In this document: piece by piece, positions 5,891-57,109 of the stretch
How positions within the stretch are numbered: position 1 is the first letter of the stretch
Layout of the letters: each line of letters begins with the position of its first letter
Source of the DNA: an uncultured Pseudomonadales bacterium
GTDB lineage: Bacteria; Patescibacteriota; Microgenomatia; UBA1400; CAYNMC01
Assembly (NCBI GenBank): GCA_964414895.1
Contig: CAYPXO010000001.1
Location: 26,999-90,998 of the forward strand
Length of the DNA stretch: 64,000 bases
Direction of reading: 5' to 3'
Notes under the pieces: model-generated
Told to the model about the DNA's origin: nothing
Seen by the model: only the letters and a program-made list of their open reading frames with translations
The model's database searches: none
Program-made: the position numbers and the translations under genes

Positions 5891-5970
5891 CCTTGTCGAC
5901 GCCACCAGATCGATTCTGTGGGGCGTTTGACAGGCGGGTGGGACATAGAACCACCCAAAAACAATAAAGA

Positions 5971-6132: not shown

Positions 6133-6137
6133 AAACT

Positions 6138-6767
6138 ATGGCAAAAAAACAAATAAAACCAACCAAGAAAACTGTCGACAAAAGTCCACAAGTGCCTACG
6201 GAAGATAAACCTCCCAAACTGTCGACAGAGAAAATGAAGGGCGAAACCAATCGCCACTTTTTAGCATGGTTACTTTACTGCCAAGCTGGGAGTCTTAGAA
6301 AAACTTTAGCTGTGTGGGATAAAGCACTGGGCATAGAAGGAGAAGTCGATTACAGAAAGCTAGGGAAGAAACCTTCCTTAAAAACTCTTAACAGGTGGTC
6401 AATGAAATACCGCTGGGGCGAAAGGGATGAGCTGCGGTTCGAGGAGACTCTCGCAGGTTTGAAAAAAGAAACGATCCGTATTGACAAGGAGCGCAAAGAC
6501 AGAGTCGCTCAGCTTTTCAAAATTGCAATGAACAAGAAACTCAGACAACTCAATATCCCCCAGGGAGAGGCAGTGAGCGACACCCTGCTTAATTACCTGT
6601 GGAGGATGCACCGAGTCGAAATGGGGTTGCCAACAGACTACAGCAAGCATGATGTCTACACGCCGATCAGGGAAGAAGACCAACAGCCATTGACACCAGA
6701 AGAAACTGTGCTAAGCCAAAAAATTACTCAGTTAGAAAAAGAACACAATGACAAAATCAACCAGTAA
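6138..6767 (+). CDS. putative terminase small subunit
   Basis: Called from its position immediately upstream of, and overlapping, the terminase large subunit, and from its size (209 aa); no diagnostic motif. Confidence 0.4.
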   Translation: MAKKQIKPTKKTVDKSPQVPTEDKPPKLSTEKMKGETNRHFLAWLLYCQAGSLRKTLAVWDKALGIEGEVDYRKLGKKPSLKTLNRWSMKYRWGERDELRFEETLAGLKKETIRIDKERKDRVAQLFKIAMNKKLRQLNIPQGEAVSDTLLNYLWRMHRVEMGLPTDYSKHDVYTPIREEDQQPLTPEETVLSQKITQLEKEHNDKINQ

Positions 6768-38029: not shown

Positions 38030-38085
38030 GGAGTTAGCTGCCCCTTGAAGGGGAAGATTAGAAGCAAGAAACCTTCGAGAACTCC
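38030..38085. other. putative prophage-host attachment junction inside comM
   Basis: Both the GC-content shift and the divergence of the comM reading frame from the conserved ...LFLDELSEF continuation occur here. Confidence 0.35.
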
Positions 38086-39011
38086 GACAACTCGTCCAAA
38101 AACAAAACTCCCCGGTGAGCCAAGGAAATTTCTCCAGGAGCCGGTTTAGAGCCACCGCCAATAAGACCAATCCGAGAAATAGTGTGGTGAGGACTTCTAA
38201 AAGGGCGGTGTTTAACAATGGAAAATTGAGCGGGTAAGTTGCCAGTTATAGAATAAGTCTTGGTTACTTCTAATGCCTCTTCTTCTGTCAACTTAGGTAA
38301 AATTGAAGGAAAACTGCGCGCCAGCATTGTTTTACCGGCACCCGGGGGGCCAATCATCAAAACATTGTGTCCGCCAGCCGCCGCTATTTCCAAAGCTCTT
38401 TTGGCATTCTCCTGACCGCTAATCTCTGCCATATCAAATTCAAAATCAAATTTCTTGTTTAGTTGACTAAATCTGACATGCTTTTGGAAAATTATCTCTT
38501 TTAATCCCGAAAAATGATGAAAAAGCTGCAATAGAGAAACAACCGGAAATACCTTTATTCTTTTTATAATCGCTGCTTCTTTGGCATTGACTGCTGGCAA
38601 AAACAGATTTCTTAACTTTAACTGTCTAGCTAAGATCGCCATTGGCAGCACCCCATTAGTATGGCGAAGAGAGCCATCTAGCGACAATTCCCCTAAAACT
38701 AGAGAGTCAGAAAGAGAACTATCAAGCTGGCCTGAAGCTATCAAAATCCCCAAAGCCATCGGTAAATCATAAGCCGGTCCTTCTTTGGGTAAATCGGCGG
38801 GAGTTAAATTAATAGTAATTCTGTGAATAGGAAAATCGCAGCCAGTATTTTTTAAAGCTGCCCTTATTCTTTCTTTGGCTTCTTCAACTGCTTTGCCAGG
38901 CAAACCAACAATGTTAAAACGGGGAAGGCTCTTTGAAGAAATATCTACCTCTACCTCAACAGGGACAGATTCCAAACCAACAGTTGCTCCGGAAATAACT
39001 TTAGCCAACAT
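38058..39011 (-). pseudogene. comM: comM/yifB Mg-chelatase-like ATPase, N-terminal ~315 aa only; truncated by prophage insertion
   Basis: Canonical ComM N-domain and Walker A (MIGPPGAGKT). The ORF ends right after VLFLDELSEF, where full-length ComM continues for about 180 more residues. Confidence 0.7.
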
Positions 39012-41029: not shown

Positions 41030-41731
41030 CTATTTTTTCTTTTTCATCTCTTTTCTAAAACCTTCATACCACTCCGTTAAAATCTGAGAAACAACATCTT
41101 TGGCTCCCAGACCAATAGCCAAACCCAGGCCCAAAGCAAACATTGCCACCACACCAATAAAAAGAATGTTTATCAACGATTGGGCAATTCCCAGTTCATT
41201 GACGGTCGCCAAAACAGCAAAAATAACTACTAAGTAGCTGGCAAATTTACCGGCCAACCGAGCAACTTTTATATCTACCTGACCAACCGCTCCTTTAACC
41301 AAACTTTCCACCAAGCCAGCCAACAAAACTCCGGCAGTTAAAATAAAAGCAGCCGATAAAACCTTAGGCACATAACCCAAAACTCTATCCAAAAGGGTAG
41401 AAACGCTAGAAAGACCTAGAATATTAACAGTGGCAATAAAAAAAACAAAAATGACAATCCATTTAACTACATTGCCCAAAATTTCCTCCATTTTTATTTT
41501 AACCTCTGCCTTCTCAAGAAATTTTTCTAAACCGGTCTTTTTAAGAATGTGGCTTAATCTTAGTCTTGAAAGCAAATCTGTTGTTAGGCTTTTTAACCAT
41601 CTGGCTAAAAGTAAACCAATAAGAAAAACACAAACAGCCGCTAAAAGACTGGGCAAAAAAGAAAAAACACTTTGCAAAACTGAAGTTGAAGCATTCAGTA
41701 AGGCATCTTGCCAATTAGACATTTTATTCAC
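41030..41731 (-). CDS. membrane protein with repeated conserved TM-helix motifs (MscS-like N-terminal type)
   Basis: Multiple hydrophobic helices; KK-rich C-terminus. Confidence 0.45.
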   Translation of the reverse strand: MNKMSNWQDALLNASTSVLQSVFSFLPSLLAAVCVFLIGLLLARWLKSLTTDLLSRLRLSHILKKTGLEKFLEKAEVKIKMEEILGNVVKWIVIFVFFIATVNILGLSSVSTLLDRVLGYVPKVLSAAFILTAGVLLAGLVESLVKGAVGQVDIKVARLAGKFASYLVVIFAVLATVNELGIAQSLINILFIGVVAMFALGLGLAIGLGAKDVVSQILTEWYEGFRKEMKKKK

Positions 41732-41734
41732 CCC

Positions 41735-41779
41735 CTTCCTTGCCCGCCTAAATTTCTGGCAGTCCGCCTCTGGCGGATG
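41735..41779 (-). promoter_or_regulatory. conserved 45-nt leader element containing the palindrome ATCCGCC-AGA-GGCGGAC and the SD
   Basis: Near-identical copy at 57065-57109 upstream of HU; partial copy at 45546-45561 upstream of miaB. Confidence 0.45.
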
Positions 41780-43327: not shown

Positions 43328-44332
43328 TTAATTTTTGATATTTTTAATATACCATTGCTTAACCACCTTTTCAATCCGCACCTGATAGTTAGAGCTTTCT
43401 ATATCAAACCATTTAACTCCTTTTAGTTTCTTAAAAAAAGTCAGCTGCCGACGGGCTAGACCATGCTCGTTATATTTCCATCGCTGGCTAATTTCTGGTA
43501 AAGTTTTTTTACCTTCAAAGCAGTCCTGCCAAACTCGATAGCCAGTAGCAGAAAAAGAAGGCAGATCAAAACTATGACCTTTTTGCAAAAGCGATTTTAC
43601 TTCTTTCTCTGCTCCTTGTTTGATCCTTTTATCGACTCGTTTATCAATTCTTTGATACAAAATCTTGCAATCTTTTGTCCTCAAGCCCATAATCAACAAT
43701 TTATTAATTTTTAATTTTGAATTGCAGTTTTGAATTTTGAATTTTGAATTTTGAATTTTCTTTGCTATTTCTATTGCTCGAATTAGCCTCCTGGGGTTAT
43801 TTCTATCCGACTCGTTCATCCTCTTTAATCTCTCCGGGTCTACTCTCTTTAATTTTCCCCTCAATTGCTCAATTGCCTCATTGCTCAATTGCTTGCGTAA
43901 TTCCCAATCCGGTTTTAGTCCTAGCGACTCCGCTCCTTCAAGCAGAGCCTTTATCCAAAAACCGCTTCCACCAACTACAATCGGCAACTTTTTTCTTTTC
44001 CAAATATCTTCAATAACAATTTTGGCAAACCTAACAAAATGGGCAACACTAAACTTTTGGTCCGGCTGACAAATATCAATCAACCAAATAGGAACATTGT
44101 CAAGCAACCTATAACCAATCTCGTAATTTTTAATTTTAAGTTTCAATTTGGAATTTGGAATTTGGAATTTGGAATTTTGAGGTATATCCTTTCCTGTCCC
44201 AATACTCATCTCTTTATAGACCTGCCTGGAATCGGCCGAAACAATCTCGCCAGAGAACTTTTTCGCCAGCTTCACTCCCAAAGCGGTTTTTCCCGTTGCC
44301 GTTGGTCCGCCAATAACAAGAAGTTTATTCAT
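43328..44332 (-). CDS. miaA: tRNA dimethylallyltransferase
   Basis: N-terminal P-loop LLVIGGPTATGKTALGVKLAKKF..IVSADSRQVYKEMSIGT. Two internal insertions encoded by heptanucleotide tandem repeats. Confidence 0.8.
   Translation of the reverse strand: MNKLLVIGGPTATGKTALGVKLAKKFSGEIVSADSRQVYKEMSIGTGKDIPQNSKFQIPNSKLKLKIKNYEIGYRLLDNVPIWLIDICQPDQKFSVAHFVRFAKIVIEDIWKRKKLPIVVGGSGFWIKALLEGAESLGLKPDWELRKQLSNEAIEQLRGKLKRVDPERLKRMNESDRNNPRRLIRAIEIAKKIQNSKFKIQNCNSKLKINKLLIMGLRTKDCKILYQRIDKRVDKRIKQGAEKEVKSLLQKGHSFDLPSFSATGYRVWQDCFEGKKTLPEISQRWKYNEHGLARRQLTFFKKLKGVKWFDIESSNYQVRIEKVVKQWYIKNIKN
43707..43750. repeat. heptanucleotide tandem repeat (TTTTGAA)x5 within the miaA coding sequence
   Basis: Direct reading of gttttgaattttgaattttgaattttgaatttt. 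Confidence 0.7.
44144..44178. repeat. heptanucleotide tandem repeat (AATTTGG)x4 within the miaA coding sequence
   Basis: caatttggaatttggaatttggaatttggaatttt. Confidence 0.7.
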
Positions 44333-45516
44333 CTTCTATTTATCATCTTTTCTAGAATTTGCCATCTTCGTTTTTTCTCTTTGTAAGAAACAGGGTCACC
44401 CAGCCTGTAAGCAGCCGTACCTGGGCGAGGGGAATATTTGGCAATATAGGCTTTTTCAAAACCGACTTGCCTGCAGAGTTTAACCGTATTTTCAAATTGT
44501 TTTTTAGTTTCTCCAGGAAAACCAACAATAATATCAGTGCCGATTTTAATATCCGGAATCCTCTCTCTAATTCGTTTAATTAAACCAAGATACTTTTTGG
44601 CCGTGTATTGACGGTTCATTTTTTTTAAAATCTCATCATCGCCAGATTGAGCTGGTAAATGTAAATAGCGGTCAATTTTTGGTAACCTTATCGCCTCAAT
44701 AATATCGTCAGTTAAGTCTTGAGGGTTGGAAGTAATAAAAGAAATCTTCTCCAAGCCCTTAATTTTATGCAATTCTCTCAGAAGTTTCGCAAATGGAGTA
44801 ATCTCAGTATTCTCAGCAAAATTCTGTGATCTCAGTGTTGCAGTTTTTCCATTCGAGCGGTCTCCCAACCTCTTCCCATATGAATTAACATTCTGTCCCA
44901 GCAAGGTTACATGCTTATAGTCGCGCTTAACCAATTCTTTTACCTCACAAACAATCTCCTCGAATGGACGGGAGACTTCCCGACCCCGGCCATAGGGAAC
45001 AACACAATAGGTGCAAAAATTATCACAACCTCTCATAATCGGCACCCACTTGCCCGCCGAAGCATCCCGAACGGAACGCGGCTGAATAAGCCGATGTGGA
45101 GTTTCGAGAGCGGAGGCGGGAGCATCAGACAAAGATTTAACATCCTTAATCAAATCTTGAAGTTTAACAAACTCGTCCACCCCTGGTAACATCTTTTTTA
45201 ATCTCGAAAGACTATACCGCAACATGCAACCAGTAAGAATAATTTTGGGCTTATTAACTTTTAAGTTTTTCGCTATAGCTTTTAGCTTGTAGCTTTTAGC
45301 TTGTAGCTTGGTCAAGTTTCTAACCTGACCGATCACCCGATCTTCCGCACTTTGTCTCACTGAACAAGTATTAATAACCACCACATCAGCTTCTTCAACT
45401 AACTTTGCTGGTTTGTAACCCTTCTGTTCATAACCTGCAGCAATTTTCTCCGAATCCGCCTTATTCATCTGACACCCATAAGTCTTAATATAATAGGTTC
45501 TTGATCTACTTGACAT
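44329..45516 (-). CDS. miaB: radical-SAM methylthiotransferase (MiaB-like)
   Basis: N-terminal MTTase domain YIKTYGCQMNKADSEKIA. Radical SAM CxxxCxxC (CDNFCTYC). Adjacent to miaA. Confidence 0.65.
   Translation of the reverse strand: MSSRSRTYYIKTYGCQMNKADSEKIAAGYEQKGYKPAKLVEEADVVVINTCSVRQSAEDRVIGQVRNLTKLQAKSYKLKAIAKNLKVNKPKIILTGCMLRYSLSRLKKMLPGVDEFVKLQDLIKDVKSLSDAPASALETPHRLIQPRSVRDASAGKWVPIMRGCDNFCTYCVVPYGRGREVSRPFEEIVCEVKELVKRDYKHVTLLGQNVNSYGKRLGDRSNGKTATLRSQNFAENTEITPFAKLLRELHKIKGLEKISFITSNPQDLTDDIIEAIRLPKIDRYLHLPAQSGDDEILKKMNRQYTAKKYLGLIKRIRERIPDIKIGTDIIVGFPGETKKQFENTVKLCRQVGFEKAYIAKYSPRPGTAAYRLGDPVSYKEKKRRWQILEKMINRR
45284..45320. repeat. tandem repeat (TAGCTTT/TAGCTTG heptamers, 14-mer x2.5) within the miaB coding sequence
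   Basis: tagcttttagcttgtagcttttagcttgtagcttg. Confidence 0.65.
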
Positions 45517-45892
45517 ATAAAGTTATAAGAGTTATTAAATCTGCCTGCCCGCCTAAATTTCCTGAATGAAACACGGCGGAATACGCCGAGTGAAATATCA
45601 AGAATATTTGGTGGGGCAGCCAAAGGTCTTAATAAAGTAAGTCTTATTCATAGCCTATTTTACCATCTCTTCTCTAAAAACCTGAGAGAAATGGAGAGAC
45701 TAAAAGAGAAGTAATAATAATTGCGGAAAGATATCCAGGTCAGTTTAACCTAAACAAAACAAATTATTTGCCAAAAAACATTTCTTGCTTATTACCAGCT
45801 GAAATTATTAAAACCTCTCAAATCAAAAAGAGTTAATACTTGTTATTAAATTTCTCTTATGGAATACTAAAATGAGGGCAAATTGAATATTA

Positions 45893-47062
45893 TTGAATAT
45901 TATGGAAGCAAAAAATCCAGCAACTCAAAACCAAAATCTTCCTCCAACAGGCCAACAAACACCACCTCTTACTACCTTGCAACCACAACCTGATGTACAA
46001 AAAAAAGATAACAAATTTTTTAAAATTTTTATCTATGTTTTAATTAGCGTATTTCTTGTGGGTTCTTTGGTTTTTGGTTTTTGGTTTTATCAAAAAGAGA
46101 AAGTAACTAAAGAGCCTGAACTTTCACCAGCTCCATTTACTAAACCTACTCCGAGCTCATTAACAAACTCCACAACTAAGCCAGATAGTCTGATGTCCGA
46201 ATGTAAATCTAATGAAAAAAAACATGTCAATAACTATATAGGGCTTTCTTTCTGCTACCCATCAAATCTGGAATATTATAGAACAACTAAAGAAGGAGCT
46301 TTTTCAGGTTCCATAAATGAATACTTCAAAGAGTCTGGCTCAAATAAAAAAGACCTATTCAATTTTTATTTTATAAGAAAAAAATTTGATAAAGATAAGC
46401 ATTATGAACAGGGCTGGGACATCAAACAAATTTCATCAAACCTAATTATTAATCCAATATACGCCATGACAGCTCCCAAAGATTACCTTATAAAAAATAT
46501 AAAGGAAAAGAAATTTAATGATAATACTTACTACACTTACAGATACAGCTCAGGTAAAAACAATTACTCTGTATATATTTACCCTAGAAATGATTGCTAT
46601 TATAAATTTACCTTCAATGAGGATAATGAAGCATTAATAAAAAGGGGCCTCAGTTCAGCAATATACCATGACAGTGTATATTTAAATATTTTTAAATTGG
46701 GAAAGACTACTAGCAACTCCAGGATAAATCTGGAAGAGTCATATGTTCCGCTTGGATGGGAATATGAAAATACCAACAATGAAACAAAACTATTCTATAA
46801 AGGAAAAGTAGGAGAGGCTACTGTAAAAATTATAGCAGATGGTAAAAGCGAGCTTTATAAATACTTAAAAGAAAGGTGTGATTATCGCACTGGCCGTTTC
46901 AGCTATGATACTCCTGATAATGAAATTGAAGAAATAAAAAATAAGTTTGGTTGCGAAAAAGTCAATTATTTCCGAACAGTAGTTATTAGACCTAAAACAG
47001 CTAGGCTGTTCTTTCTAAATTCACTTTTCATAACTTTTCAAGTTCATCTTCAAAGCATATGA
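45893..47062 (+). CDS. secreted or membrane-anchored hypothetical protein
   Basis: N-terminal TM helix after a Q/P/T-rich segment. The 3' end overlaps repeat copy A, so the real stop may lie earlier. Confidence 0.45.
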   Translation: MNIMEAKNPATQNQNLPPTGQQTPPLTTLQPQPDVQKKDNKFFKIFIYVLISVFLVGSLVFGFWFYQKEKVTKEPELSPAPFTKPTPSSLTNSTTKPDSLMSECKSNEKKHVNNYIGLSFCYPSNLEYYRTTKEGAFSGSINEYFKESGSNKKDLFNFYFIRKKFDKDKHYEQGWDIKQISSNLIINPIYAMTAPKDYLIKNIKEKKFNDNTYYTYRYSSGKNNYSVYIYPRNDCYYKFTFNEDNEALIKRGLSSAIYHDSVYLNIFKLGKTTSNSRINLEESYVPLGWEYENTNNETKLFYKGKVGEATVKIIADGKSELYKYLKERCDYRTGRFSYDTPDNEIEEIKNKFGCEKVNYFRTVVIRPKTARLFFLNSLFITFQVHLQSI

Positions 47063-47082
47063 TCGTGAGTCAATCTGGTGAA
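47021..47082. repeat. ~62-bp repeat copy A (..TTCAAGTTCATCTTCAAAGCATATGATCGTGAGTCAATCTGGTGA)
   Basis: 58 of 62 positions identical to copy B at 49299-49360. Confidence 0.7.
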
Positions 47083-47103
47083 GTAAAAACTGCTAAATTA
47101 GGA

Positions 47104-47526
47104 TTACTTTTCTAAAATTTTTAAAAACTCTCTTGGAGTAACAATTTTAATATTTTTAAAACTTTTTAACTTCAAAAGATGCTTATCACCAGAAATAATC
47201 CATTTTGCTTTACCTTGCAAAGCACAAGCTAAAAACTTATCATCAGCTGGATCCTCAACAATAATTTCTAATTTCTGTTTTGGCTCAATTATTGCGCAAT
47301 CCTTTTCTAAAGACTTTTTTACTCTTTTTATCTTTTCTTCTGATAACTGATATCTTCTTTTGATTTTTGGCCGCTTTAAAACATCCAAGATCTCATCAAT
47401 AACCTTCTGCGAAACTACCAAGTTGATCTTTTTTGTTTGCCAGAGTTTGAGAATTTTTCTTGGGGCTCCTTTGGGAGAAATTAGTCCGCTAACAACTACA
47501 TTTGTATCCAAAACCACCTTGCTCAT
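47104..47526 (-). CDS. PIN-domain toxin (VapC-like)
   Basis: VLDTNVVV PIN N-terminal motif with a conserved acidic residue pattern; overlaps the upstream antitoxin gene. Confidence 0.7.
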   Translation of the reverse strand: MSKVVLDTNVVVSGLISPKGAPRKILKLWQTKKINLVVSQKVIDEILDVLKRPKIKRRYQLSEEKIKRVKKSLEKDCAIIEPKQKLEIIVEDPADDKFLACALQGKAKWIISGDKHLLKLKSFKNIKIVTPREFLKILEK

Positions 47527-47804
47527 TTACCTCTCACTTTATCAACTGCTTCAGCCACATCGTTCTTAACTTGAGAAAAAGGAACATTTTTGTTTTCCTC
47601 GGCAATCGCAAAAAGTTCTCGAAAACGTTCTTCTCTTGCCCTCTCTGCCTGTCTACTTAATTCCAGCAAATCCTCTAGGTTAATCAAAACTGCCATTGGC
47701 CGACCCATTTTTTGTAGTAAAAACTGCTGACCTTGATAATATACCTGGCTTAAAAGCTCAGAAAAATTATTTCTTGCCTGACTGACGCTTATTGTTCTGG
47801 TCAT
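47523..47804 (-). CDS. Phd/YefM-family antitoxin
   Basis: TISVSQARNNFSELL is the typical Phd/YefM N-terminus; 4-nt overlap with the PIN gene. Confidence 0.65.
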   Translation of the reverse strand: MTRTISVSQARNNFSELLSQVYYQGQQFLLQKMGRPMAVLINLEDLLELSRQAERAREERFRELFAIAEENKNVPFSQVKNDVAEAVDKVRGK

Positions 47805-47868
47805 ATTTTATCTCCTTTCTGTCTTTAGAATAGCAATAATTGTACAATTTGTCAATTTTGTATTTTTT

Positions 47869-48303
47869 TCAGCCTGTAGGCTTTTCATTAACTAAAAAAG
47901 GATTAAAATTGATCTTTAATAAATTTCTAATCGGTACAAAGAGTAGTCTGGGTAAATTTCTCCACTCAAACCAATCCCATCCGATACATTTATCAGGCTC
48001 TTTAATTTTTACTTTACCAGATTTATAGTCTGCTATCACAAAACAAGTAATATAATGCTTACCTTCTTTTTTGAAAATATCATTAGTATAAGGACCTTGT
48101 TTAAGGTTTTTTATCTTTATTCCTGCTTCTTCTAAAACCTCTCTTTTGGCACAACTAAAAACATCTCCATTAAAATCTAGGTGCCCGCCCGGAAAATTCC
48201 AATCACCCTCTCCATGAGAACCCTTTCTCTTGCCCATCAAGACTTTATTATCTTTTATAACAATTACGCCAATGCCTATTCTTGGGTATTTGTTGTTTTT
48301 CAT
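47869..48303 (-). CDS. NUDIX hydrolase
   Basis: Nudix box GGHLDFNGDVFSCAKREVLEEAGI. Confidence 0.7.
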   Translation of the reverse strand: MKNNKYPRIGIGVIVIKDNKVLMGKRKGSHGEGDWNFPGGHLDFNGDVFSCAKREVLEEAGIKIKNLKQGPYTNDIFKKEGKHYITCFVIADYKSGKVKIKEPDKCIGWDWFEWRNLPRLLFVPIRNLLKINFNPFLVNEKPTG

Positions 48304-48324
48304 TGTTTTATCTCTTGCCAGAAA

Positions 48325-49212
48325 TCATTTTTTGATATTGATTACCATCGTCGCTCCAATAAAAGCCAAAATAGAACCAGCGATAAAACCCAAAGTCAAT
48401 CTTTCTCCCAGCATTAAAGCAGACCAGATAAAAGCAGAAACAGGCTGAAGATAAAAAACCATAGAAACAATAATTGGGTTGGCTTTTTTAATTGCCAGCT
48501 GGTAGACAATATAATAGCCGGCTGTGCCAAGTATCCCCACATAAACTAAGCTTGCCCAGCTGGCGAAAGAAACATTTTTAAGCAAACCCAAATTGCCTTC
48601 AGTTTCTGACAAAGCTAAGAAACTTTGAACAATGAGAGTTGTGGCAATAAAAATAGTTGTCAAGGCCAGCGGAGAAAAGTATTTTTGTAGTTTTTTGGAA
48701 AAAACTGAATACAAAGAATAAGAAAAAACAGCAATAAATACTAAAAGGTTGCCTAAAAGATCGCCGCTAAAAACAAAGCTTTTCCCCAACACAGGCAGAA
48801 GAACAATTAACAAAACTCCAATAAAACCAATAATAACTCCTAAAATTTTTTTTAAACTCATTTTTGTTTTGAGAATAAAATATGAAGTGATAGCAACAAT
48901 AATTGGCACTGCAGCATATAACATTTGGGAAATTGTAGCGGTAGTCTTTCTAACACCTAGGGCAAAAAAAGTAACATTTGAAGTAGCCAATAAAGAAATC
49001 AGAACAGCCAGTTTTATTTTTTTTAAGTTTAACTTTTTTTCTTTGGATAGAAATAAAGGGCCTAAAACTAAGCCGGCCAAAATAAACCTTAAAAATATAA
49101 AGGTAAAAGGAGTTATCTGTTTTAGGGCAATTTTAGAAAATGGAGGAACCCCACCACCGATAAAAGCTGCTAATAAAACTAAAACTATTGATGTAAAAAT
49201 ATCATTTCTCAT
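48325..49212 (-). CDS. EamA/DMT-family transporter
   Basis: Ten TM helices in two EamA-like halves. Confidence 0.6.
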   Translation of the reverse strand: MRNDIFTSIVLVLLAAFIGGGVPPFSKIALKQITPFTFIFLRFILAGLVLGPLFLSKEKKLNLKKIKLAVLISLLATSNVTFFALGVRKTTATISQMLYAAVPIIVAITSYFILKTKMSLKKILGVIIGFIGVLLIVLLPVLGKSFVFSGDLLGNLLVFIAVFSYSLYSVFSKKLQKYFSPLALTTIFIATTLIVQSFLALSETEGNLGLLKNVSFASWASLVYVGILGTAGYYIVYQLAIKKANPIIVSMVFYLQPVSAFIWSALMLGERLTLGFIAGSILAFIGATMVINIKK

Positions 49213-49298
49213 CTTCTCTTATATTTCATCAGTCATAACATTACGCCTGATTTTATTTTATCCGAGAAATTTAATAAAGACTAGCTATTTTTTCGAAT

Positions 49299-49360
49299 TG
49301 ACTTTTCACAATTCTTCAAGTTCATCTTCAAAGCATATGATCGTGAGTCAATCTGGTGAG
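49299..49360. repeat. ~62-bp repeat copy B
   Basis: See copy A. A degenerate third copy (GATCGTGGGTCAATC) lies at 50153-50172. Confidence 0.7.
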
Positions 49361-49384
49361 CTAAAGAGAGCAAATTTGTAAAAT

Positions 49385-50032
49385 TTATTGAAGTTTTAAG
49401 ATTCTAAGCTTTATTTTTTTCTTCTCAAGTTTAAACTGAAAAATCACTGGAAAGTCAAAATTATTTTTAATATAAAGATTTTTTTCTTTGCTTTCCTTAC
49501 TTCCTTCTTCATAAGAAATTAAAGTCCCGTATTCTCTTGGCACACCGGGAATAGGGGAGAAGTCGTGATTTCTTTTGGCAATTACTTCCAATCCTGCCTC
49601 ACTAGCCGTCCAGTTCATCAAAGAAGCCAAGTGGCAAACTCCATTACCATGAATTCCATAGGCTTTTTTAAAACCCTGTTCGGCGGAAAATTGGCTGCCA
49701 ACAGTCATAACCAGCCCTTTTTCATACTCTGGCAAAATATTTTTATGAAAAGCAAAAACCGCCCCGGAAGGCAAGACAAAAGAAAAATCATCACTAATCT
49801 TGCCAGCAAAATAGTAAAGGTTCAAAAGAATGTTGTCAGTAAAAATCTCGTTTATTTCTTTATTTTCATCTCTGTTTGTCAAATCAAGGCTGTTTTGAGC
49901 CAAAAATCCTTTCTCTCTATCGGCAACTTGGTTTATAAGCTCGCTTTGAGGAATTGGTGTTAATAAAACCTTCTTCTGAAAAGGGAGACCTGGTAGTAGA
50001 AAAGAAAGCAAAGAAACAACAACTGTTTTCAT
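49385..50032 (-). CDS. VanW-like protein
   Basis: Signal peptide; GIHGNGVCHLASLM resembles the VanW G-G-G-V-C core. Confidence 0.4.
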   Translation of the reverse strand: MKTVVVSLLSFLLPGLPFQKKVLLTPIPQSELINQVADREKGFLAQNSLDLTNRDENKEINEIFTDNILLNLYYFAGKISDDFSFVLPSGAVFAFHKNILPEYEKGLVMTVGSQFSAEQGFKKAYGIHGNGVCHLASLMNWTASEAGLEVIAKRNHDFSPIPGVPREYGTLISYEEGSKESKEKNLYIKNNFDFPVIFQFKLEKKKIKLRILKLQ

Positions 50033-50183
50033 TTTAAAAATTAAAAACCTCTGTTTTTAACCAGAGGCAGGCTTTTTATTCTTCTCCTATTTTCTCAAAT
50101 CATTCCCTAATTTTCAATCCCTGCTTGCTTTTATATCTACTCTAATAAGCCTACGATCGTGGGTCAATCAGAGTAACTTAAAT

Positions 50184-51662
50184 TCACTCGGGAGTAAAAC
50201 GGTAAACACCAAAATAACTTTCTTTCTCTGGTTTGTAGAATCGTGCCTTTTCTATAAGACAATCTTCTAGGCCTCCTTTATGCTCACTGCGGCTGACAAA
50301 ATAAACCGGCTTTTTAAAAGAAAATTCTTCTATCTTTCCTTTTAATAGCTGTTTATCCAAATAAACTACTTTGATTCTTGGATTTTCAAAATAATAAGCA
50401 AAAAGAGCATTCTCTGGATTGCCAGCATCCAAACGAACGCCCAGGACGATAGGTTGTTTCTCTGCTTTTTCTTCCAAAAATTGTCTCACTTTGTCCAAGC
50501 CATAACCGGCAGTGTTCCCGGTAACATACTCCTTTTTTTGAGAAAAGGCAGGGATAAAGTTGTTCAACAAGCTAAAGTAGGCAAGAGGCTTGAAAATCAA
50601 TAAAAAAGTCACATATAAAGGAAAAAATAGTGCAAACAGTCCAAAAAAGCCAAGAAATTTTTGCTTTATAAAAAGAAAGGCGACTGCCAAAGCAGCTAAA
50701 ATTGAAGTCAGTGGTAAAAGAGGCATTATATAACGAGGATTAAGATTCCTAGCAGTTAATATTGTTATTGCCAAACTCCCAAAAAACCAAAATAAAAACA
50801 GATAATATCTTTCCTTAATTGCCTTAATTAAGCCAAGAATTATCAATAAAAAAACTGCTGGTGTTAGCTGCCAAAAACTTATTTTTAAAAAAGCTGAAAT
50901 ATTGCCCCACCATTTATCAAAAGGAAAAAAAAGCAATTCTTTAATGGTCAAATTAAAACGATTGCTCATTTTAATAATATTAAGAAAGTCAGGCTGGATA
51001 ATAAGAGGCAAAATAAAAAAGAAAGTAAAAAATAAAATCAAAGCCAGTGCCCAAAAATAATTTTGTTTTTCTTTAATTTTTCTCTCTTTCAGAAGAAAAA
51101 AACCCAAACTAACAACTGTTAATAAAAAAAAGATAAATGTGTTTGATTTAATAAAAAGACCAATTCCTAAAATACTACCAATAAAAAAAGAGATAACTAA
51201 ACTTCTTCTTTTAAAATAAAGGCTTAAAAGATAAAAACTCCAAATATTAACAGAACAAACAGCACTCTCCATTAAGGCCTGTCGATCAAAAAAGACAAAA
51301 ATTGGCACGATAATATAAATAAGCGGTGCAATTAGTAAAAAAGGCCAAGGTAAAAAAAGAGCACTTAATAAATATATCCCTAATACCCCTAATCCTCCTA
51401 AGGCCACTGACACCAATCTCCCGGCAAGCAAAGGATCAGGAATTATTTTATTTGTAATTCCAAAAACCCACATCAAAAAAGGCTGCTTACCGTCATAAAG
51501 GGAATAAAAAGCAAAACCAGGAATATTAATCATCCGCTGCCCCCAATCAAGGTAAATCGCTTCGTCATTAAAAATCGGCAGTAAGGTAAGGTTAACAACT
51601 CGTACAAATAAAAAAAGAAAAAAGACTAAAAGAAGCAAAAGAAACTTTTTATTGCTTATCAT
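50184..51662 (-). CDS. PMT/ArnT-family (GT39/GT83-like) membrane glycosyltransferase
   Basis: More than ten TM helices; N-terminal LPIFNDEAIYLDWG matches the D-E loop of PMT/ArnT enzymes. Confidence 0.55.
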   Translation of the reverse strand: MISNKKFLLLLLVFFLFLFVRVVNLTLLPIFNDEAIYLDWGQRMINIPGFAFYSLYDGKQPFLMWVFGITNKIIPDPLLAGRLVSVALGGLGVLGIYLLSALFLPWPFLLIAPLIYIIVPIFVFFDRQALMESAVCSVNIWSFYLLSLYFKRRSLVISFFIGSILGIGLFIKSNTFIFFLLTVVSLGFFLLKERKIKEKQNYFWALALILFFTFFFILPLIIQPDFLNIIKMSNRFNLTIKELLFFPFDKWWGNISAFLKISFWQLTPAVFLLIILGLIKAIKERYYLFLFWFFGSLAITILTARNLNPRYIMPLLPLTSILAALAVAFLFIKQKFLGFFGLFALFFPLYVTFLLIFKPLAYFSLLNNFIPAFSQKKEYVTGNTAGYGLDKVRQFLEEKAEKQPIVLGVRLDAGNPENALFAYYFENPRIKVVYLDKQLLKGKIEEFSFKKPVYFVSRSEHKGGLEDCLIEKARFYKPEKESYFGVYRFTPE

Positions 51663-51809
51663 CAGTTTCTACGAGGAAAAAGCATCTTTATACCACTTGT
51701 TAAAAAAGCAATCACAAAGCGGAAAAGATCTCCTGCTTTTCTGCCTAAAAACTGCAAAAAATCTTCCCCAAAATAGCGCAAATGACGCTGTTCTTCTTCT
51801 CCCAGCATT

Positions 51810-52028: not shown

Positions 52029-52046
52029 ATCATAAAAAAGGAGAAA

Positions 52047-52865
52047 TCAGCTGGAGGCAGAGGAATATTTGGTCAAAGAAAAGCGCCATAGTTTTAAAGA
52101 GAGAAAAAATAGTGTTATTGAAATAAAAAAAGCGTAAATCAACCATTGCCAAGACAAAAGTCCCATCAAGGCCTTAGCAGGAAAAGTAAAAACAACCCCA
52201 ATAGGAACAACAAAAGTCAAAAAAGCCCTTACCGAGTCAATATAAATATCAACCGGCACCCGAGCCATCAAAGATAAATCTCTGTAGATCAAAATCGCAT
52301 GATCAACTTCTGTAGTAATCACCCCAATTGAAGCAACTAGAATATGAACAGCCGTAACAATCAAAAAACCACAAAATGTTATCAAGAGAAATAAAAGAAA
52401 GTTTATAAGTGAAATAGCCATATTTTGTTTAATTAACGCCCAAATAATAACCATCAACAGGGGTAAATCTAAGATATCAGTTCTATTAGTCAAAATTTGA
52501 AAAAGAGGACTGAGTGGTTTAACCAAAGCCAGGTCAAATTTACCGGAAACAACATCTCCTCTAAACCAATAAATTCCCCGGAAAAAAAGCTGACCCAAAA
52601 TATCCAAAAGATTAAAAACCAAAAAGAAAACTATCATCTGTTCCAAATTATAGCCAGCTAGGCTCTTTGTTTTTCCCAAAACAACCAAAAGTAAAACCAG
52701 AAAAAAGGCAAAGCGAATAAATTTGCCAAGAAGGTACATTAATGAGGCTCCTTGAGTAAATAAAGGCGTCTGGATTGACAGAATGGTAGTCTTTAGCCAA
52801 ACTTTTAAGTATTTCTTAATATTCATATCCCAGCCGCAGTATAGGATTTTAGTCCTCTCCGCCAA
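52047..52865 (-). CDS. ABC-2 family transporter permease
   Basis: Six TM helices; paralog of 55040..55828 (shared ...WRFSLTKYSSASS / ...WQFNLKHYSSASS C-termini). Confidence 0.55.
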   Translation of the reverse strand: MAERTKILYCGWDMNIKKYLKVWLKTTILSIQTPLFTQGASLMYLLGKFIRFAFFLVLLLVVLGKTKSLAGYNLEQMIVFFLVFNLLDILGQLFFRGIYWFRGDVVSGKFDLALVKPLSPLFQILTNRTDILDLPLLMVIIWALIKQNMAISLINFLLFLLITFCGFLIVTAVHILVASIGVITTEVDHAILIYRDLSLMARVPVDIYIDSVRAFLTFVVPIGVVFTFPAKALMGLLSWQWLIYAFFISITLFFLSLKLWRFSLTKYSSASS

Positions 52866-53665
52866 AGTAAATTAACCAAAAACTTAAGAATAAAAATCCA
52901 AAGAGCCATCACAGTAAAACCGGTAATAATCCCCGTTCTATCTACTCTTCCTAAATAAACTTGCAAGGGAAAGAAAATAAAATAAGAAGAGGGTAAAAAT
53001 CTCAAAAAATTAAAAACTAGTCTTGGCAGGATATCCAAAGGCAATAGGCCTCCAGAGAAAAACCTGAGAAGGACTGTAAATAAAAACCTGGCCGGCCAGC
53101 CGTTATGTTCCGGATACCAAAAAGTAGTTAAACTTATAATTAGGCTTAAATAAAAATAGACAAAGATGCTCAAAATAGAAAAACCAATAAAACCAAAAAG
53201 ATAAAAAAGGTTTGTTTGGAGAAAAAAAGGTGGCTTCAACAGCCAAAAAATCAAAGCTAACTCAAAAATAAGAAAGACCAAATTAAGTAACTTGTCCGAA
53301 AAGTCTCGACTAAGCCAATAAAAAAAATAATTAATCGGTTTTAATAAACAATTGCTTAACTTGCCGGTGCTAATCTCGCCGGCAACATCAATGCTACGGG
53401 AGCCTAAAACCAAAGAATGAAGGAGTGAACTAGCTAAAATATAGGTCAACATCATTTCCTCATCATAGCCACCAATATTTTGATTAAAACGATAGACGGC
53501 ATACCAAAAAAAGTAAGCACTTAATCTTAAAATTACTGTTCTTATTCGCCAAACAACAAAGTTAAAACGATAAACAAGGCTCTCTTGCCAAGAAATTTTG
53601 AAAATTTGGAAGTATTTTTTAAGCATAATCTTTGCCGGTAAAGAGCTCGCGGATGATATTTTCAA
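52823..53665 (-). CDS. ABC-2 family transporter permease
   Basis: Paralog of 55975..56775 (..LWRRGLKSYTAAGI / ..LWRRGLKVYSTYGG). Confidence 0.55.
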   Translation of the reverse strand: MKISSASSLPAKIMLKKYFQIFKISWQESLVYRFNFVVWRIRTVILRLSAYFFWYAVYRFNQNIGGYDEEMMLTYILASSLLHSLVLGSRSIDVAGEISTGKLSNCLLKPINYFFYWLSRDFSDKLLNLVFLIFELALIFWLLKPPFFLQTNLFYLFGFIGFSILSIFVYFYLSLIISLTTFWYPEHNGWPARFLFTVLLRFFSGGLLPLDILPRLVFNFLRFLPSSYFIFFPLQVYLGRVDRTGIITGFTVMALWIFILKFLVNLLWRRGLKSYTAAGI

Positions 53666-54602
53666 TCGAAGCCTCAGAAATGTTTAAATCTTTAACTGAA
53701 TAAGAGTGCAAAAGCTTGGCAGCTATCTTATTGGACTCTTCCTTTTTTACCTTTAAAACTACCCGAGGAAAATCAAACTCAACCACCTCGCCCATCTCTG
53801 CCAATCTTCGCAAGTTGATTTCCTTTCCTAAGGTTATTTCCAAGAGCTTGTGGTCAGCATATCTTTCTATCACTTCAGTAAGCTGGCCATCAAAAACAAT
53901 TTTCCCCTTGTCAATAATAATCACTCTCTTGCAAAGCTCTTGAACATCTCCCATATAGTGAGAAGTCAAAATTATTGTTGACTTAAATTCTTTATTATAA
54001 TTTTTGATAAAATCCCTGATTTTTTTTTGCATGACCACATCTAATCCAATCGTCGGTTCATCCAAAAACAAAACTTTAGGGGAGTGAAGTAGGGCAGCAA
54101 TCAGTTCACATTTCATCCTCTGGCCAAGCGACAGTTTTCTTACCTGAACATTGATAATTTTTTCTATTTCCAAAAGAGCAACCAACTTATCCAAAGTTTC
54201 CCTAAACTTTTCATCCGGAATTTCATAGATCTCCTTGTTAAGAAGAAAAGTTTCCATTGCCGGTAAATCCCACCAAAGCTGGTTTTTTTGCCCCATTACA
54301 AGAGAAATCTGCTTAAGAAAGTCATGTTTTCTCTTCCAAGGATCAAAACCCAAAACAGATAGCTTTCCCCCATCAGAGTAGAGAAGTCCGGAAAGGCATT
54401 TTAAAGTAGTTGTCTTACCCGCCCCATTAGGTCCGATAAAACCAACAAGTTCCCCTTTCTTTATGGAAAAAGAGACTCTGTCAACCGCTTTAACTTCCTC
54501 ATATTCTCTTTTAAACAAAGACTTAAGAGAACCCACCAAGCCTGGTTCTTTTTTATGAACTTTGTAGTATTTCTTTAAATTTTTAACGTTAATGACGCTC
54601 AT
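53619..54602 (-). CDS. ABC transporter ATP-binding protein
   Basis: Walker A GPNGAGKTT, signature LSLGQRMK, Walker B LFLDEPT. Confidence 0.8.
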   Translation of the reverse strand: MSVINVKNLKKYYKVHKKEPGLVGSLKSLFKREYEEVKAVDRVSFSIKKGELVGFIGPNGAGKTTTLKCLSGLLYSDGGKLSVLGFDPWKRKHDFLKQISLVMGQKNQLWWDLPAMETFLLNKEIYEIPDEKFRETLDKLVALLEIEKIINVQVRKLSLGQRMKCELIAALLHSPKVLFLDEPTIGLDVVMQKKIRDFIKNYNKEFKSTIILTSHYMGDVQELCKRVIIIDKGKIVFDGQLTEVIERYADHKLLEITLGKEINLRRLAEMGEVVEFDFPRVVLKVKKEESNKIAAKLLHSYSVKDLNISEASIENIIRELFTGKDYA

Positions 54603-54955
54603 TAATGAATAATATTATAAATCTTCCATCCTTCAACACTATTTACTAAATGATAAATCAATAAAGCAGAGTGGGATTTTTTCCCTTTAAAGAAGTAGGT
54701 TTCTTTAGAAACCACAACAGTAGCTAATTTATCTTCACTACGAAAATCGATTGCCAAAATTTTCGTTTCCAGCTTATCAATCGAAAGATAACCATGCGAG
54801 GAAGAACCAGCAATTTCATCAATCTGAGTGGAAAGAAAAAGTTTTCTATCCTTTTGCTTTACTGCTCTTTCTCTCAATAAAAATATCTCCTTTATCTCCC
54901 TATTTACCCTCATTCTCTCAAGTATACTATAATCAAAGTTATAATTCACTCCCAT
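54602..54955 (-). CDS. hypothetical protein
   Basis: 117-aa ORF. Confidence 0.35.
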   Translation of the reverse strand: MGVNYNFDYSILERMRVNREIKEIFLLRERAVKQKDRKLFLSTQIDEIAGSSSHGYLSIDKLETKILAIDFRSEDKLATVVVSKETYFFKGKKSHSALLIYHLVNSVEGWKIYNIIH

Positions 54956-55039
54956 AACACTCCTTATAACAACAATTTTCGAAGAAACGTAAAAAAAAAT
55001 TATTACTCAATGTGGCGATCGCAGCACGAAATAATAATT

Positions 55040-55828
55040 TTATGAGGAGGCGCTGGAGTAATGCTTGAGATTAAACTGCCAGACCTTATGGGAAAGAAAA
55101 AGCAAGAAAAGGGATATAAAAATTCCGTAAAAAACCGTTGGCCAAGAAATCAAACCCAATAAAGTCTTAACCGGAATAGTAATAACAAAAGCTAAAGGAA
55201 ACACAAAAAAGAAAAAGTGTTTTAAAATTGGCGGCAGGATATCTAAAGGAATTACTGTCAAACGCAGAATTGGATGGAAAAATTCATAGATATTTGATAT
55301 ATTGCCGAGCCAAAAAACCAAATTAAGGCTCATAAACCACAAAGAATAAACAATGACAATAGAAAAAACAAGCATTGCTAAAAAAAGAGCAAAATTTAAA
55401 AAACTAATTTCTATCTTTGAGCTAGTTGCTACTACGAGCAAGACCGAACAACCCATCAAGAAACGTAAAAGAGTATGCCAAGAAAATTCCCTTAAAGAAA
55501 CATAAAATTGAGAAGAAAGTGGCTTGACTAAGACTAAATCTAGCTCTCCGTAATAAACCAAGCTAGCGAGCTTTTTGAAATTGTGACTGAAAAAAACTTT
55601 GGTTAAAGAGTTAATTACCAAAAAGGTAGCAGCCAAAACAAGAAGCTCCTCATAGTGCCAATTACCCACTCTTTGGATGTGACCAAAAATGAATTTGTAT
55701 AATAAAAGATACACTAATCCCCATAAAAAATTAATAAAAGATATAAGGAAAAAGTTGAAGCGATATTGACCTTCTCTTATCAAAGAGTTTTTTATAAAAG
55801 AAAGGTAAAGTTTAAAATATCTTTTCAT
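55040..55828 (-). CDS. ABC-2 family transporter permease (paralog)
   Basis: See 52047..52865. Confidence 0.5.
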   Translation of the reverse strand: MKRYFKLYLSFIKNSLIREGQYRFNFFLISFINFLWGLVYLLLYKFIFGHIQRVGNWHYEELLVLAATFLVINSLTKVFFSHNFKKLASLVYYGELDLVLVKPLSSQFYVSLREFSWHTLLRFLMGCSVLLVVATSSKIEISFLNFALFLAMLVFSIVIVYSLWFMSLNLVFWLGNISNIYEFFHPILRLTVIPLDILPPILKHFFFFVFPLAFVITIPVKTLLGLISWPTVFYGIFISLFLLFLSHKVWQFNLKHYSSASS

Positions 55829-55974
55829 CGTCTCTTATACTTCGAGCGGGTCTCGAGTTGTGTCGAGAGAGAAGTCGAGAAGCTTGCCTCAGATTTATCG
55901 AAGAGTTCTCGACTCACTGCGTTCGCTCGAACAATAAAAAACTTACCTCACTCACTCGTCAATTTGTTCCTATT

Positions 55975-56775
55975 TTATCCTCCATAAGTTGAATAAACTT
56001 TCAAACCTCTTCGCCACAAACTCCTGGTTAAGAACAAAAAAATTACAATCCAAAAAAACTGTATTGAAAAAGTCAGTAAAATCTCTCTAACTCCAAGATT
56101 TCCCAAAAAAATCTGTGTAGGAACAAAAACTTCAAAACGAAAAGGCAGAAACAAAGAAATCTTATAAAGACTTTCTGGTAAAAACTGCAGAGGAAAAAGC
56201 GTCCCTCCAAAAAGTAAAAGCAAAAAATCTGTCAGATTATTCAACCAACCAATCTCATTAAACCAGAAAGCAGACAGGCCAATGATAAGCTTAAACAAAA
56301 AAAATAAAATAAAGCTAAAGCTTATAAAAATAAAAAATAAGGATATATCTCTCCAAGAAAAATTTAAACTACCCAAAGAAACAGGGTAAAAAAGCAAAAA
56401 AAGGCCAATTACAGGAAATAGGAAAATTAAACGTAAAATTTTATAGGCTAGCTCATATATAAATCTTAAAAACAAAACTCTGGCTGGTCTCATTAAGTAA
56501 AAAGAGCTCAATTTACCAGTAGAAATATCAACTTGCAAAGCATGATCAGGATGGGTAAAAACAACGGCACGAATAAACATCACCAAAAGATAATAAACAA
56601 ACATCGAAGAGATGCTATAACCAGCAATCTTCTCTTGCCTAGCAAAAGCCGCCTGCCAGAAAAGAAGCATAATAGTCGGCGGAACAACATCCCAAAAAAA
56701 CCAAATAACACTTCTTGCCCTATAGGCAAAAACTAGCTGGAGTATGGTTTTAAAAAAGGCCCAATACTTTCTCAC
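55975..56775 (-). CDS. ABC-2 family transporter permease (paralog)
   Basis: See 52823..53665. Confidence 0.5.
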   Translation of the reverse strand: MRKYWAFFKTILQLVFAYRARSVIWFFWDVVPPTIMLLFWQAAFARQEKIAGYSISSMFVYYLLVMFIRAVVFTHPDHALQVDISTGKLSSFYLMRPARVLFLRFIYELAYKILRLIFLFPVIGLFLLFYPVSLGSLNFSWRDISLFFIFISFSFILFFLFKLIIGLSAFWFNEIGWLNNLTDFLLLLFGGTLFPLQFLPESLYKISLFLPFRFEVFVPTQIFLGNLGVREILLTFSIQFFWIVIFLFLTRSLWRRGLKVYSTYGG

Positions 56776-57051
56776 TTAGCGAACTTTCTTTTTTAAATTC
56801 TTAGAAACTATAAAACGGACCGCCCGGTGGGCTTTGTGGACTACTGGTGTTGGGTCATCAACGCTTTTCCTTCCTTTTTTGTCGGCCACCTTTTTAACAA
56901 CAAAAGTTCCGAAACCGGAAAGAACGACTTTCTCTCCTTTCCTTAAAGCTTTTCTAATTTCCTCAAGCATCACCTCAACTGCTTCTTTAGAAGCCTTTTT
57001 GGTTAAGTGAGCCTTCTTGGCTACAATCTCAATCAAATCTGATTTTTTCAC
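56776..57051 (-). CDS. hup: HU/IHF-family DNA-binding protein
   Basis: GFGTF beta-arm motif and typical length; MKKSDLIEIVA N-terminus. Confidence 0.8.
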   Translation of the reverse strand: MKKSDLIEIVAKKAHLTKKASKEAVEVMLEEIRKALRKGEKVVLSGFGTFVVKKVADKKGRKSVDDPTPVVHKAHRAVRFIVSKNLKKKVR

Positions 57052-57064
57052 TCTAGTTTCACCT

Positions 57065-57109
57065 CCTTCCTTGCCCGCCTGAATTTCTGGCAGTCCGCCT
57101 CTGGCGGAT
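57065..57109 (-). promoter_or_regulatory. second copy of the conserved 45-nt palindromic leader element
   Basis: CCTTCCTTGCCCGCCTGAATTTCTGGCAGTCCGCCTCTGGCGGAT differs from the 41735 copy at one position. Confidence 0.45.

Follow-up and report, generated by a model that had tools for sequence, protein, structure and literature searches.

One question raised by the locus described here is why a single short sequence should recur at each boundary between small blocks of genes that a close relative lacks. The locus lies in a stretch of 64,000 nucleotides (nt), called the window below, which covers positions 26,999 to 90,998 of the forward strand of contig CAYPXO010000001.1 (GenBank assembly GCA_964414895.1), from an uncultured Pseudomonadales bacterium with the GTDB lineage Patescibacteriota, Microgenomatia, UBA1400, CAYNMC01. 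Three direct copies of a repeat, designated R, separate co-oriented gene blocks, one of which carries a predicted toxin-antitoxin pair, in an array that adjoins a truncated conserved gene. A sequence-only reading of the same DNA had proposed that these repeats might mark a small mobile or recombination-prone island, or might belong to a family of REP-like (repetitive extragenic palindromic) terminator elements. The argument developed here builds on four observations, namely the anatomy of the repeat, the absence of the segment from the corresponding locus of a sister contig, the derived truncation of the gene beside the first copy, and the non-uniform divergence of the first two copies. To our knowledge, very little is known about the gain and loss of accessory genes in uncultivated, small-genome bacteria of this type, and the locus provides one concrete example, in which a 4.7-kb array specific to the lineage cuts into a conserved gene and has copies of one short sequence between its blocks.

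A short repeat at the boundaries of gene blocks

The three copies of R are located as follows.

46993-47103, plus strand: R1; exact core 47037-47081; left end 14 nt from the synteny break at 46978/46979; adjoins the stop codon of the PIN gene
49272-49384, plus strand: R2; exact core 49315-49359; between the VanW stop codon (49385-49387) and the EamA start (49212)
50086-50182, plus strand: R3; best-conserved block 50152-50172; between the PMT_2 stop codon (50184-50186) and the VanW start (50032)

A repeat search of the window aligned R1 and R2 as direct repeats at 47018-47099 and 49296-49377, over 82 nt without a gap and at 87% identity, while BLAST reported 64 nt of the same pair at 93.75%. 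The sequence-only reading had described direct repeats of about 62 bp at 47021-47082 and 49299-49360, about 94% identical; these are real, and the 62-nt interval holds 5 differences, which corresponds to 92%. Within the alignment lies an identical core of 45 nt (47037-47081 and 49315-49359), and shuffles of the window give 0.00 expected chance occurrences for a 43-nt core pattern. Gapped alignment extends the similarity leftward to 46993 in R1 and to 49272 in R2, by way of two compensating 1-nt indels and one more 1-nt indel, and to the right of the core the similarity is weaker and includes a 12-nt indel. The full R unit amounts to ~105-110 nt and is non-coding.

The third copy is tied to the other two by a degenerate 21-mer, TAYGATCGTGRGTCAATCWGR, which is common to R1, R2 and R3 and occurs exactly 3 times in the window against 0.00 expected. 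A partial third copy had previously been placed at 50153. That copy exists, but its 15-mer match spans 50155-50169, and it is a degenerate full-length copy with indels rather than a fragment (50086-50182; alignment score 42, against 23.8 +/- 3.8 and a maximum of 37 for shuffles). The right two-thirds of the 45-nt core, AAGCNTAYGATCGTGRGTCAATCWG, are also the best-conserved part of R3, such that a block of ~30 nt is the best-conserved portion of R across all three copies; the left third of the core is not kept in the R3 alignment.

R1, R2 and R3 share one orientation, fall within 3.2 kb, and are sited only at block boundaries. Read along the minus strand, on which the genes lie, the order is PMT_2-R3, VanW-R2, EamA-NUDIX-Phd-PIN-R1, with R1 and R2 bracketing the block of EamA, NUDIX, Phd and PIN. 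Each copy starts 14-31 nt past the last stop codon of its block (PIN, VanW or PMT_2), and R2 and R3 end ~60 nt and ~54 nt, respectively, ahead of the next start codon. No further copy, even a weak one, was found in the 64-kb window, ~28 kb of which is host-like, and no R-like sequence, allowing up to 5 mismatches in 21, was found in the 9087-bp sister contig described below. A census of the 21-mer returned 2 matches among GTDB representatives and 2 among JGI metagenomes, all of them due to chance (they include an Acinetobacter coding region and the start of a Spirochaetota gene, apparently that for ribosomal protein S8), and 0 matches in IMG/VR; none of these collections includes the source genome. 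Dozens of copies scattered over intergenic sites, the pattern that the earlier reading had set against its own island proposal, were seen neither in the window and the sister contig nor in the three public collections.

A lineage-specific segment beside a truncated gene

The comparison that bears on the origin of the array involves two features of the window.

45902-47062, plus strand: membrane-anchored conserved protein gene (P0121), no Pfam match; 386 amino acids (aa) from its ATG, within a 389-aa open reading frame (ORF) at 45893-47062; 3'-truncated
46979-51661, no strand: lineage-specific segment, 4683 nt in place of 456 nt of the sister contig (its positions 5748-6203)

Among 5.8 billion proteins, the 389-aa protein has just one close relative, P0122, which is 426 aa long and 81% identical. 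P0122 is encoded on a 9087-bp contig in ENA, designated L008, that is collinear with the window through MiaA, MiaB, P0122, a 48-aa ORF, a 78-aa ORF, HU and RNase Y. DNA homology between the two (86%) runs from 45617 to 46978 and then stops, to resume at the 48-aa ORF, where window positions 51662-51808 correspond to L008 positions 6204-6350. The intervening segment of the window contains, from left to right, 14 nt, R1, PIN-Phd-NUDIX-EamA, R2, VanW, R3 and PMT_2. A comparison of synteny with a relative lacking the cassette had been proposed as a check on the island idea, and at the collinear locus of L008 the whole of 46979-51661 is absent.

The left junction of the segment can be polarized with the help of more distant relatives. 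P0121 and P0122 align to residue ~359 (nt 46978) and are divergent after it; past this nucleotide, the P0121 frame reads 27 unrelated codons into R1 and ends at a TGA at 47060-47062. An exhaustive HMMER search with the sister protein P0122 identified three distant family members, P0243 (38%), P0244 (34%) and P0245 (29%), whose alignments extend through the C-terminal tail of P0122, and a multiple alignment of the family reveals common Cys, Pro, Tyr and G-x-L-K positions in this tail that are missing in P0121. Because the distant homologues share the tail of the sister protein, it is the gene in the window that, judged from these alignments, has lost its conserved last ~67 codons, and this loss in turn identifies the junction at 46978/46979, on the same comparison, as a derived, illegitimate join in the window's lineage. 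The lost tail has left no trace in 46900-51700, where the tails of four family members match nothing, and this rules out that R is the displaced 3' end of the 389-aa gene. The open frame within R is also out of phase with that gene, as checked by hand. A distance of 14 nt separates the junction from the point at which R1/R2 similarity begins on the left; by our own estimate, a random junction in a 4.7-kb segment would fall within 14 nt of one of the six R boundaries with a probability of ~2%.

Searches of the same 5.8 billion proteins found no homologue of PIN or VanW above 51% identity, with best non-self matches at ~50%, and the best VanW relative is non-syntenic and without R; the conserved gene next to the segment, by contrast, has an orthologue at 81%. 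Because orthologues in the sister lineage, if present, would be expected to match at well above the ~50% identity of these best matches, the searches support the view that PIN and VanW are accessory genes of the window's lineage.

The two sequences differ in gene content at other points as well. Between a 72-aa ORF and HU, the window carries an ABC-2-type transporter operon at 52029-56788 (four ABC2_membrane genes, one ATPase gene and a 115-aa ORF) that is absent from L008, in which HU and the 78-aa ORF share a 4-nt overlap; beside the R array, the operon thus adds a second difference in presence or absence. To the left of a conserved AI-2E transporter gene, L008 carries at positions 1-1280 a bAvd-like gene and a toxin-antitoxin pair of the Gp49(HigB)/HTH(HigA) type, and at the matching position the window carries MscS-like and beta-lactamase-like genes. 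Variable segments that bear toxin-antitoxin genes between conserved blocks seem common in this clade.

R as a proposed recombination joint

The way in which R1 and R2 have diverged is not uniform. They differ at 11 of the 82 ungapped positions, on both sides of the core but nowhere inside the 45-nt block, and an unchanged run of this length has a probability of 0.0008 if 11 differences are placed at random. As R3 does not keep the left third of the core, the identity of the core in R1 and R2 looks recent, rather than held by long-term constraint. An identical tract between diverged flanks is as expected if two diverged R alleles had undergone a reciprocal crossover or had shared a conversion tract, and would be expected of attachment (att) cores also. 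The reading that we favour, at slightly less than even confidence, is that R is a recombination joint, acting as portable homology or as a site resembling att where gene blocks joined a lineage-specific accessory array.

The events that would have produced the present arrangement can be outlined. The EamA-NUDIX-Phd-PIN block would most likely have entered by a single reciprocal crossover, in the manner of Campbell-type integration, between the copy of R already resident downstream of VanW and a diverged copy on a circular or donor DNA. Such a crossover would leave two hybrid copies of R that share the crossover or conversion tract, here the 45-nt core, and differ in the flanks on either side, while R3 may be the decayed joint of an older event. 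The enzyme responsible could be RecA, or a site-specific recombinase acting in trans. Once in place, the Phd/PIN pair may oppose loss of the block through recombination between R1 and R2, by post-segregational killing.

Several points weigh against a recombination joint. The comparison of gene content is made with one relative, on a contig of 9 kb. Searches with Pfam and NCBIfam of all genes in 46979-51661 detected no gene for a recombinase, a transposase or a relaxase within the array or next to it, and the cognate recombinase for which the earlier reading had suggested looking is thus absent from the array and from the genes adjoining it. The only recombinase in the window is an Xer-like tyrosine recombinase 9 kb away, at 36837-37925. 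R has no inverted-repeat core of the tyrosine-recombinase type, with motif arms that match, by eye, at 4/5 to 5/11 positions. Neither R nor the cassette was found in a second genome, so that there is no empty site with a single R, and no cassette in another context, with which to compare the array. The cassette has a GC content of 31-39%, which overlaps that of neighbouring non-housekeeping genes. Furthermore, because the sister locus is without R, the first arrival of R at the locus would itself have been an illegitimate join and not a recombination between two copies of R. Lastly, the AAGCNTAYGATCGTGRGTCAATCWG block that is kept in all three copies could just as well be there for cis-regulation, for instance as a site to which a protein binds.

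The Xer-like recombinase falls under all curated cut-offs, with XerA, XerD and XerC as its best matches, and scores 81 bits against an integron-integrase model whose cut-off is 265. It sits at the edge of an unrelated high-GC block, and nothing connects it to R. Composition is uninformative as a test of foreignness for the cassette, as 31-39% GC is the range of its non-housekeeping neighbours, and no DNA similarity to the region was found in plasmid or phage records.

The proposal of a mobile or recombination-prone island therefore survives in part. Variable gene content, the absence of the segment from L008, and a gene truncated 14 nt from R1 all agree with it; autonomous mobility is not supported, given that there is no recombinase in or beside the array, no near-identical cassette elsewhere, and best matches of ~50% for PIN and VanW. 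That R is part of an actively spreading element is not supported by any evidence obtained here.

R as a possible regulatory or structural element

Conservation of one block of ~30 nt in all three copies raises a different explanation, in which R is a cis-acting intergenic module of the neighbouring transcription units that was copied along with genes and is not a recombination site. Such a module might serve the minus-strand genes downstream of it as a 5' leader or operator, or act as a 3'-end element of the genes upstream, and the minus-strand block, GATTGACYCACGATC, might be a protein-binding site or a -35-like element. Besides the conserved block itself, the spacing from block to start codon is alike in the two places where a gene follows (127 nt for R2/EamA and 123 nt for R3/VanW), the minus strand of R3 has a promoter-like TTGACC-17-TAGAGT, and the same genome has copied another intergenic module between unrelated genes, a 52-nt sequence at 96% identity upstream of HU and an MscS-like gene. 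However, R1 has no downstream minus-strand gene and faces the truncated convergent gene, and neither R1 nor R2 has a correctly spaced -10 element (TTGACT-17-AAGATG). The motif also occurs in no other intergenic region of the window and is missing from L008. Nor does a regulatory module explain why 45 nt are identical between diverged flanks, or why R is sited at a synteny break. On balance, we consider a cis-acting module to be the less probable explanation, with about one chance in four as a fair description of its standing.

Searches for structure and signals bear on the same explanation. Both strands of R1, R2 and R3 were folded with RNA and with DNA parameters, and the resulting z-scores ranged from -1.6 to +1.4, with no stem common to the copies and no T-run at R. 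As R folds no better than shuffled sequence, it is ruled out as a structured RNA, an intrinsic terminator, a REP-like palindrome or an attC hairpin, and a module acting as a terminator is left without hairpin or T-run. The suggestion of a REP-like terminator family is not supported, there being no conserved hairpin, no T-run and no dispersed copies. Rfam has no match for R at gathering or relaxed thresholds, and the sole sub-threshold match in 45.5-52.5 kb is a chance microRNA match at 49997-50083, outside R. The region has 26 promoter-like matches, against a shuffle expectation of 21.5 +/- 4.2; with no enrichment over shuffles, and a passable -35/-10 pair in R3 only, a promoter reading of R was rejected, and the same figures count against a cis-acting module. 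A tRNA-derived att site was likewise rejected: there is no tRNA or tmRNA within 10 kb of R, and the sole tRNA, a tRNA-Pro, lies at 60480.

R as possible coding sequence

Another possibility arises from the reading frames of R, only one of the six being open through both R1 and R2 on the plus strand. R would then be coding sequence, either a small ORF (MIVSQSGEVKTAKLGLLF in R1, MIVSQSGELKRANL in R2) or a remnant of a gene's 3' end, duplicated on integration of an element into that gene. Between the two copies, 5 of the 10 changed codons are synonymous, 8 of the 11 substitutions fall in one codon phase (P = 0.027), the length difference past the core is a 12-nt, in-frame indel, and the ATG in R1 overlaps the TGA of the upstream gene (ATGA). 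Against this, the statistics are weak, the ORFs are tiny, and they lack a Shine-Dalgarno sequence, which is present at the neighbouring genes. In R3 the ATG is replaced by ACG and there is an early stop, and 1-nt indels separate the copies in the left part of R. Furthermore, R, including its encoded peptide, is unlike the tail of the truncated neighbour or of the flanking gene family, and zero synonymous change over the 15 codons of the core points to recency or to a cause at the DNA level, not to selection on a protein. We regard a coding origin as improbable, and the signals of a small ORF or coding relic, which are unlikely to mean coding, are left unexplained.

The assembly across R

Any argument from repeats that flank a block depends on the assembly, and the block might in principle have been misjoined at the 45-mer. 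In that case a chromosome with a single R (389-aa gene, R, VanW) would exist alongside a circle of 2278 bp or a segment from another strain. The Logan contigs (SRR14802572) across the region are short, and none extends past the window: the first stops at 47066, the second covers 47052-49344, and the third begins at 49330. These breaks are where a k=31 graph must break at an exact repeat of 45 nt, and they indicate that the true repeat in the sampled population is at least 45 nt; the graph fits the linear form and the form with one R plus a 2278-bp circle equally. The core is, however, just 45 nt long and has differing flanks, and normal reads, as well as graphs with k of at least 55, span it unambiguously. 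In addition, the deposited NCBI contig of 123,668 bp has the linear arrangement, and R3, a diverged copy in a unique context, cannot be an artefact. Misassembly is thus the least probable of the explanations weighed, with only a very slight chance of being correct. The probability that remains after a recombination joint, a cis-acting module, coding sequence and misassembly have had their shares belongs to something outside the readings considered.

Genes of the array

The genes of the segment and its right-hand boundary are the following.

47104-47526, minus strand: PIN-domain toxin (PIN_3, TIGR00305; PIN_3 E = 4e-28); stop codon 47104-47106
47523-47804, minus strand: Phd/YefM antitoxin (PhdYeFM_antitox E = 8e-12); 4-nt overlap with PIN
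47869-48303, minus strand: NUDIX hydrolase (Pfam/NCBIfam)
48325-49212, minus strand: EamA/DMT-family transporter (Pfam/NCBIfam)
49385-50032, minus strand: VanW-domain protein; sole gene between R2 and R3
50184-51662, minus strand: PMT_2 glycosyltransferase; last gene on the right of the lineage-specific segment; start overlapping the 48-aa ORF's stop
51662-51808, minus strand: conserved 48-aa ORF; orthologue at L008 6204-6350; right boundary of the segment

The PIN, Phd, NUDIX, EamA and VanW genes had been called from the sequence alone, and Pfam and NCBIfam bear out each of these calls, with all five on the minus strand. As predicted from sequence, PIN and Phd form an adjacent, overlapping Phd/YefM-PIN pair with matching domains, as is required of a type II toxin-antitoxin system, and Phd has its own promoter-like site, TTGACA-17-TATTCT, at 47855-47827. 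With regard to membership in a defence system, only weak PADLOC candidate-family matches were obtained, for NUDIX and PIN. Upstream of PMT_2 lie the small ORFs, the ABC-2 transporter operon and HU. Between R3 and VanW, at 50047-50068, there is a bidirectional terminator-like hairpin (CCTCTG-N8-CAGAGG, with T-runs on both strands) whose placement is odd, as it ends only 15 nt upstream of the VanW start codon.

Other features of the window

Positions 1 to ~36800 make up a block with a GC content of 46-49% and strong AT skew, in which every long ORF is on the plus strand and which abuts a host region of 32-38% GC. Its genes include one for an LPD38 'large polyvalent protein' of 1907 aa (28616-34339) and one for a Peptidase_C39_2 protein, and at its border are found the Xer-like tyrosine recombinase (36837-37925) and a ComM/YifB-like ATPase of only 317 aa (38058-39011), seemingly from a truncated comM, that matches just the first 120 of the 207 Mg_chelatase positions. 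The block looks like a phage or an element resembling an integrative and conjugative element (ICE) that is integrated in comM. The cumulative GC skew peaks near 37 kb (~36-38 kb), where plus- and minus-strand gene blocks converge, and gene orientation flips again at ~60.4 kb, between RecA on the minus strand and tRNA-Pro on the plus strand. The peak and the flips could be replication landmarks, a reading that the foreign high-GC block confounds.

Two other kinds of repeat are present. A second intergenic repeat, at 41727-41778 and 57058-57109 (52 nt, 96% identity), is GC-rich, with a CCGCC...GGCGG hairpin and a GGAGG-type ribosome-binding site, and lies directly upstream of the start codons of the MscS-like gene and HU, 15 kb apart. 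L008 has only the ribosome-binding site upstream of HU, and the 52-nt element was therefore gained in the window's lineage. Perfect or near-perfect tandem arrays of heptamers occur inside conserved coding genes, at 43706-43759, 44145-44177 (MiaA), 45249-45310 (MiaB) and 62591-62621 (a radical-SAM gene), with units AATTTTG, AATTTGG, TAGCTTG and AAATTCG in 4-8 copies whose translation gives low-complexity inserts such as NSKFQIPNSKLKLK. Two of the arrays coincide with breaks between Logan contigs (44148 and ~62617), and the arrays may be expansion-prone or phase-variable insertions.

Comparison with known systems

What the locus means depends on which explanation of R holds. If R is a recombination joint, the array would illustrate a simple, recombinase-poor route for swapping small gene blocks, including a toxin-antitoxin pair, among related genomes; if R is merely a shared regulatory module, the finding is an ordinary one. 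Because the evidence comes from one relative and the mechanism is inferred, the significance is modest and mainly local.

In layout, the array is closest to the cassette arrays of integrons, which also consist of co-oriented blocks of 1-4 genes, each with a repeat of ~100 nt directly past the stop codon, and in which a toxin-antitoxin pair can likewise lie within an array that abuts conserved genes. Unlike attC, however, R forms no hairpin in DNA or RNA folds of either strand and lacks the R''/L''-L'/R' inverted repeats. No pair of integron core sites (RYYYAAC ... GTTRRRY) is kept between R1 and R2, CATAAC in R1 corresponding to CACAAT in R2, and there is no IntI or attI beside the array. One R block also comprises four genes in at least two transcription units, and a search of the literature on integrons or cassette repeats in Patescibacteria found nothing relevant.

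Tandem islands bounded by att sites, of the kind that tyrosine integrases insert at tRNA genes or other gene 3' ends, provide a second comparison. As in such islands, the accessory DNA here is missing from a close relative and lies between direct repeats that share an identical core, and the third, decayed repeat, R3, suggests successive insertions at one site. The R blocks are, in contrast, tiny (0.8 and 2.3 kb) and without an integrase. R is not part of a tRNA, a tmRNA or the 3' end of a target gene, the sister's empty locus is without R, and the gene beside the array is truncated and not restored.

Modules that depend on Xer recombinases, such as integrative mobile elements exploiting Xer (IMEX) and the pdif modules of Acinetobacter plasmids, resemble the array in their 1-4 genes, often toxin-antitoxin genes, in their short repeated sites and in having no recombinase of their own, and an Xer-like recombinase is encoded in the window. 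By inspection, R differs from a dif-type 11-6-11 site of 28 nt, as its arms, AAGCATATGAT and TCAATCTGGTG, are symmetric at 5/11 positions and CATAA-N6-TTATG is missing; pdif sites also alternate in orientation, whereas the copies of R are all direct. The last comparison is with REP sequences and bacterial interspersed mosaic elements (BIMEs), and with repeats like miniature inverted-repeat transposable elements (MITEs), which, like R, are short, non-coding, and found at gene ends in intergenic regions. R is non-palindromic and has no terminal inverted repeats, with 3 copies in 3.2 kb and none elsewhere in the sequence searched.

It is conceivable, though we would give it little credence, that R is the site of an undescribed cassette-capture system in an uncultivated, small-genome lineage resembling the candidate phyla radiation (CPR)/Patescibacteria, with an integron-like layout, a non-hairpin site, a recombinase supplied in trans (for instance, the Xer-like enzyme encoded 9 kb away or RecA), and stabilization by toxin-antitoxin genes. 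Because the defining tests for an integron, an att island, an Xer module and a REP or MITE family each fail, the R array is filed under no named family, and is described as what it is, a set of repeat-bounded accessory gene blocks in a variable region.

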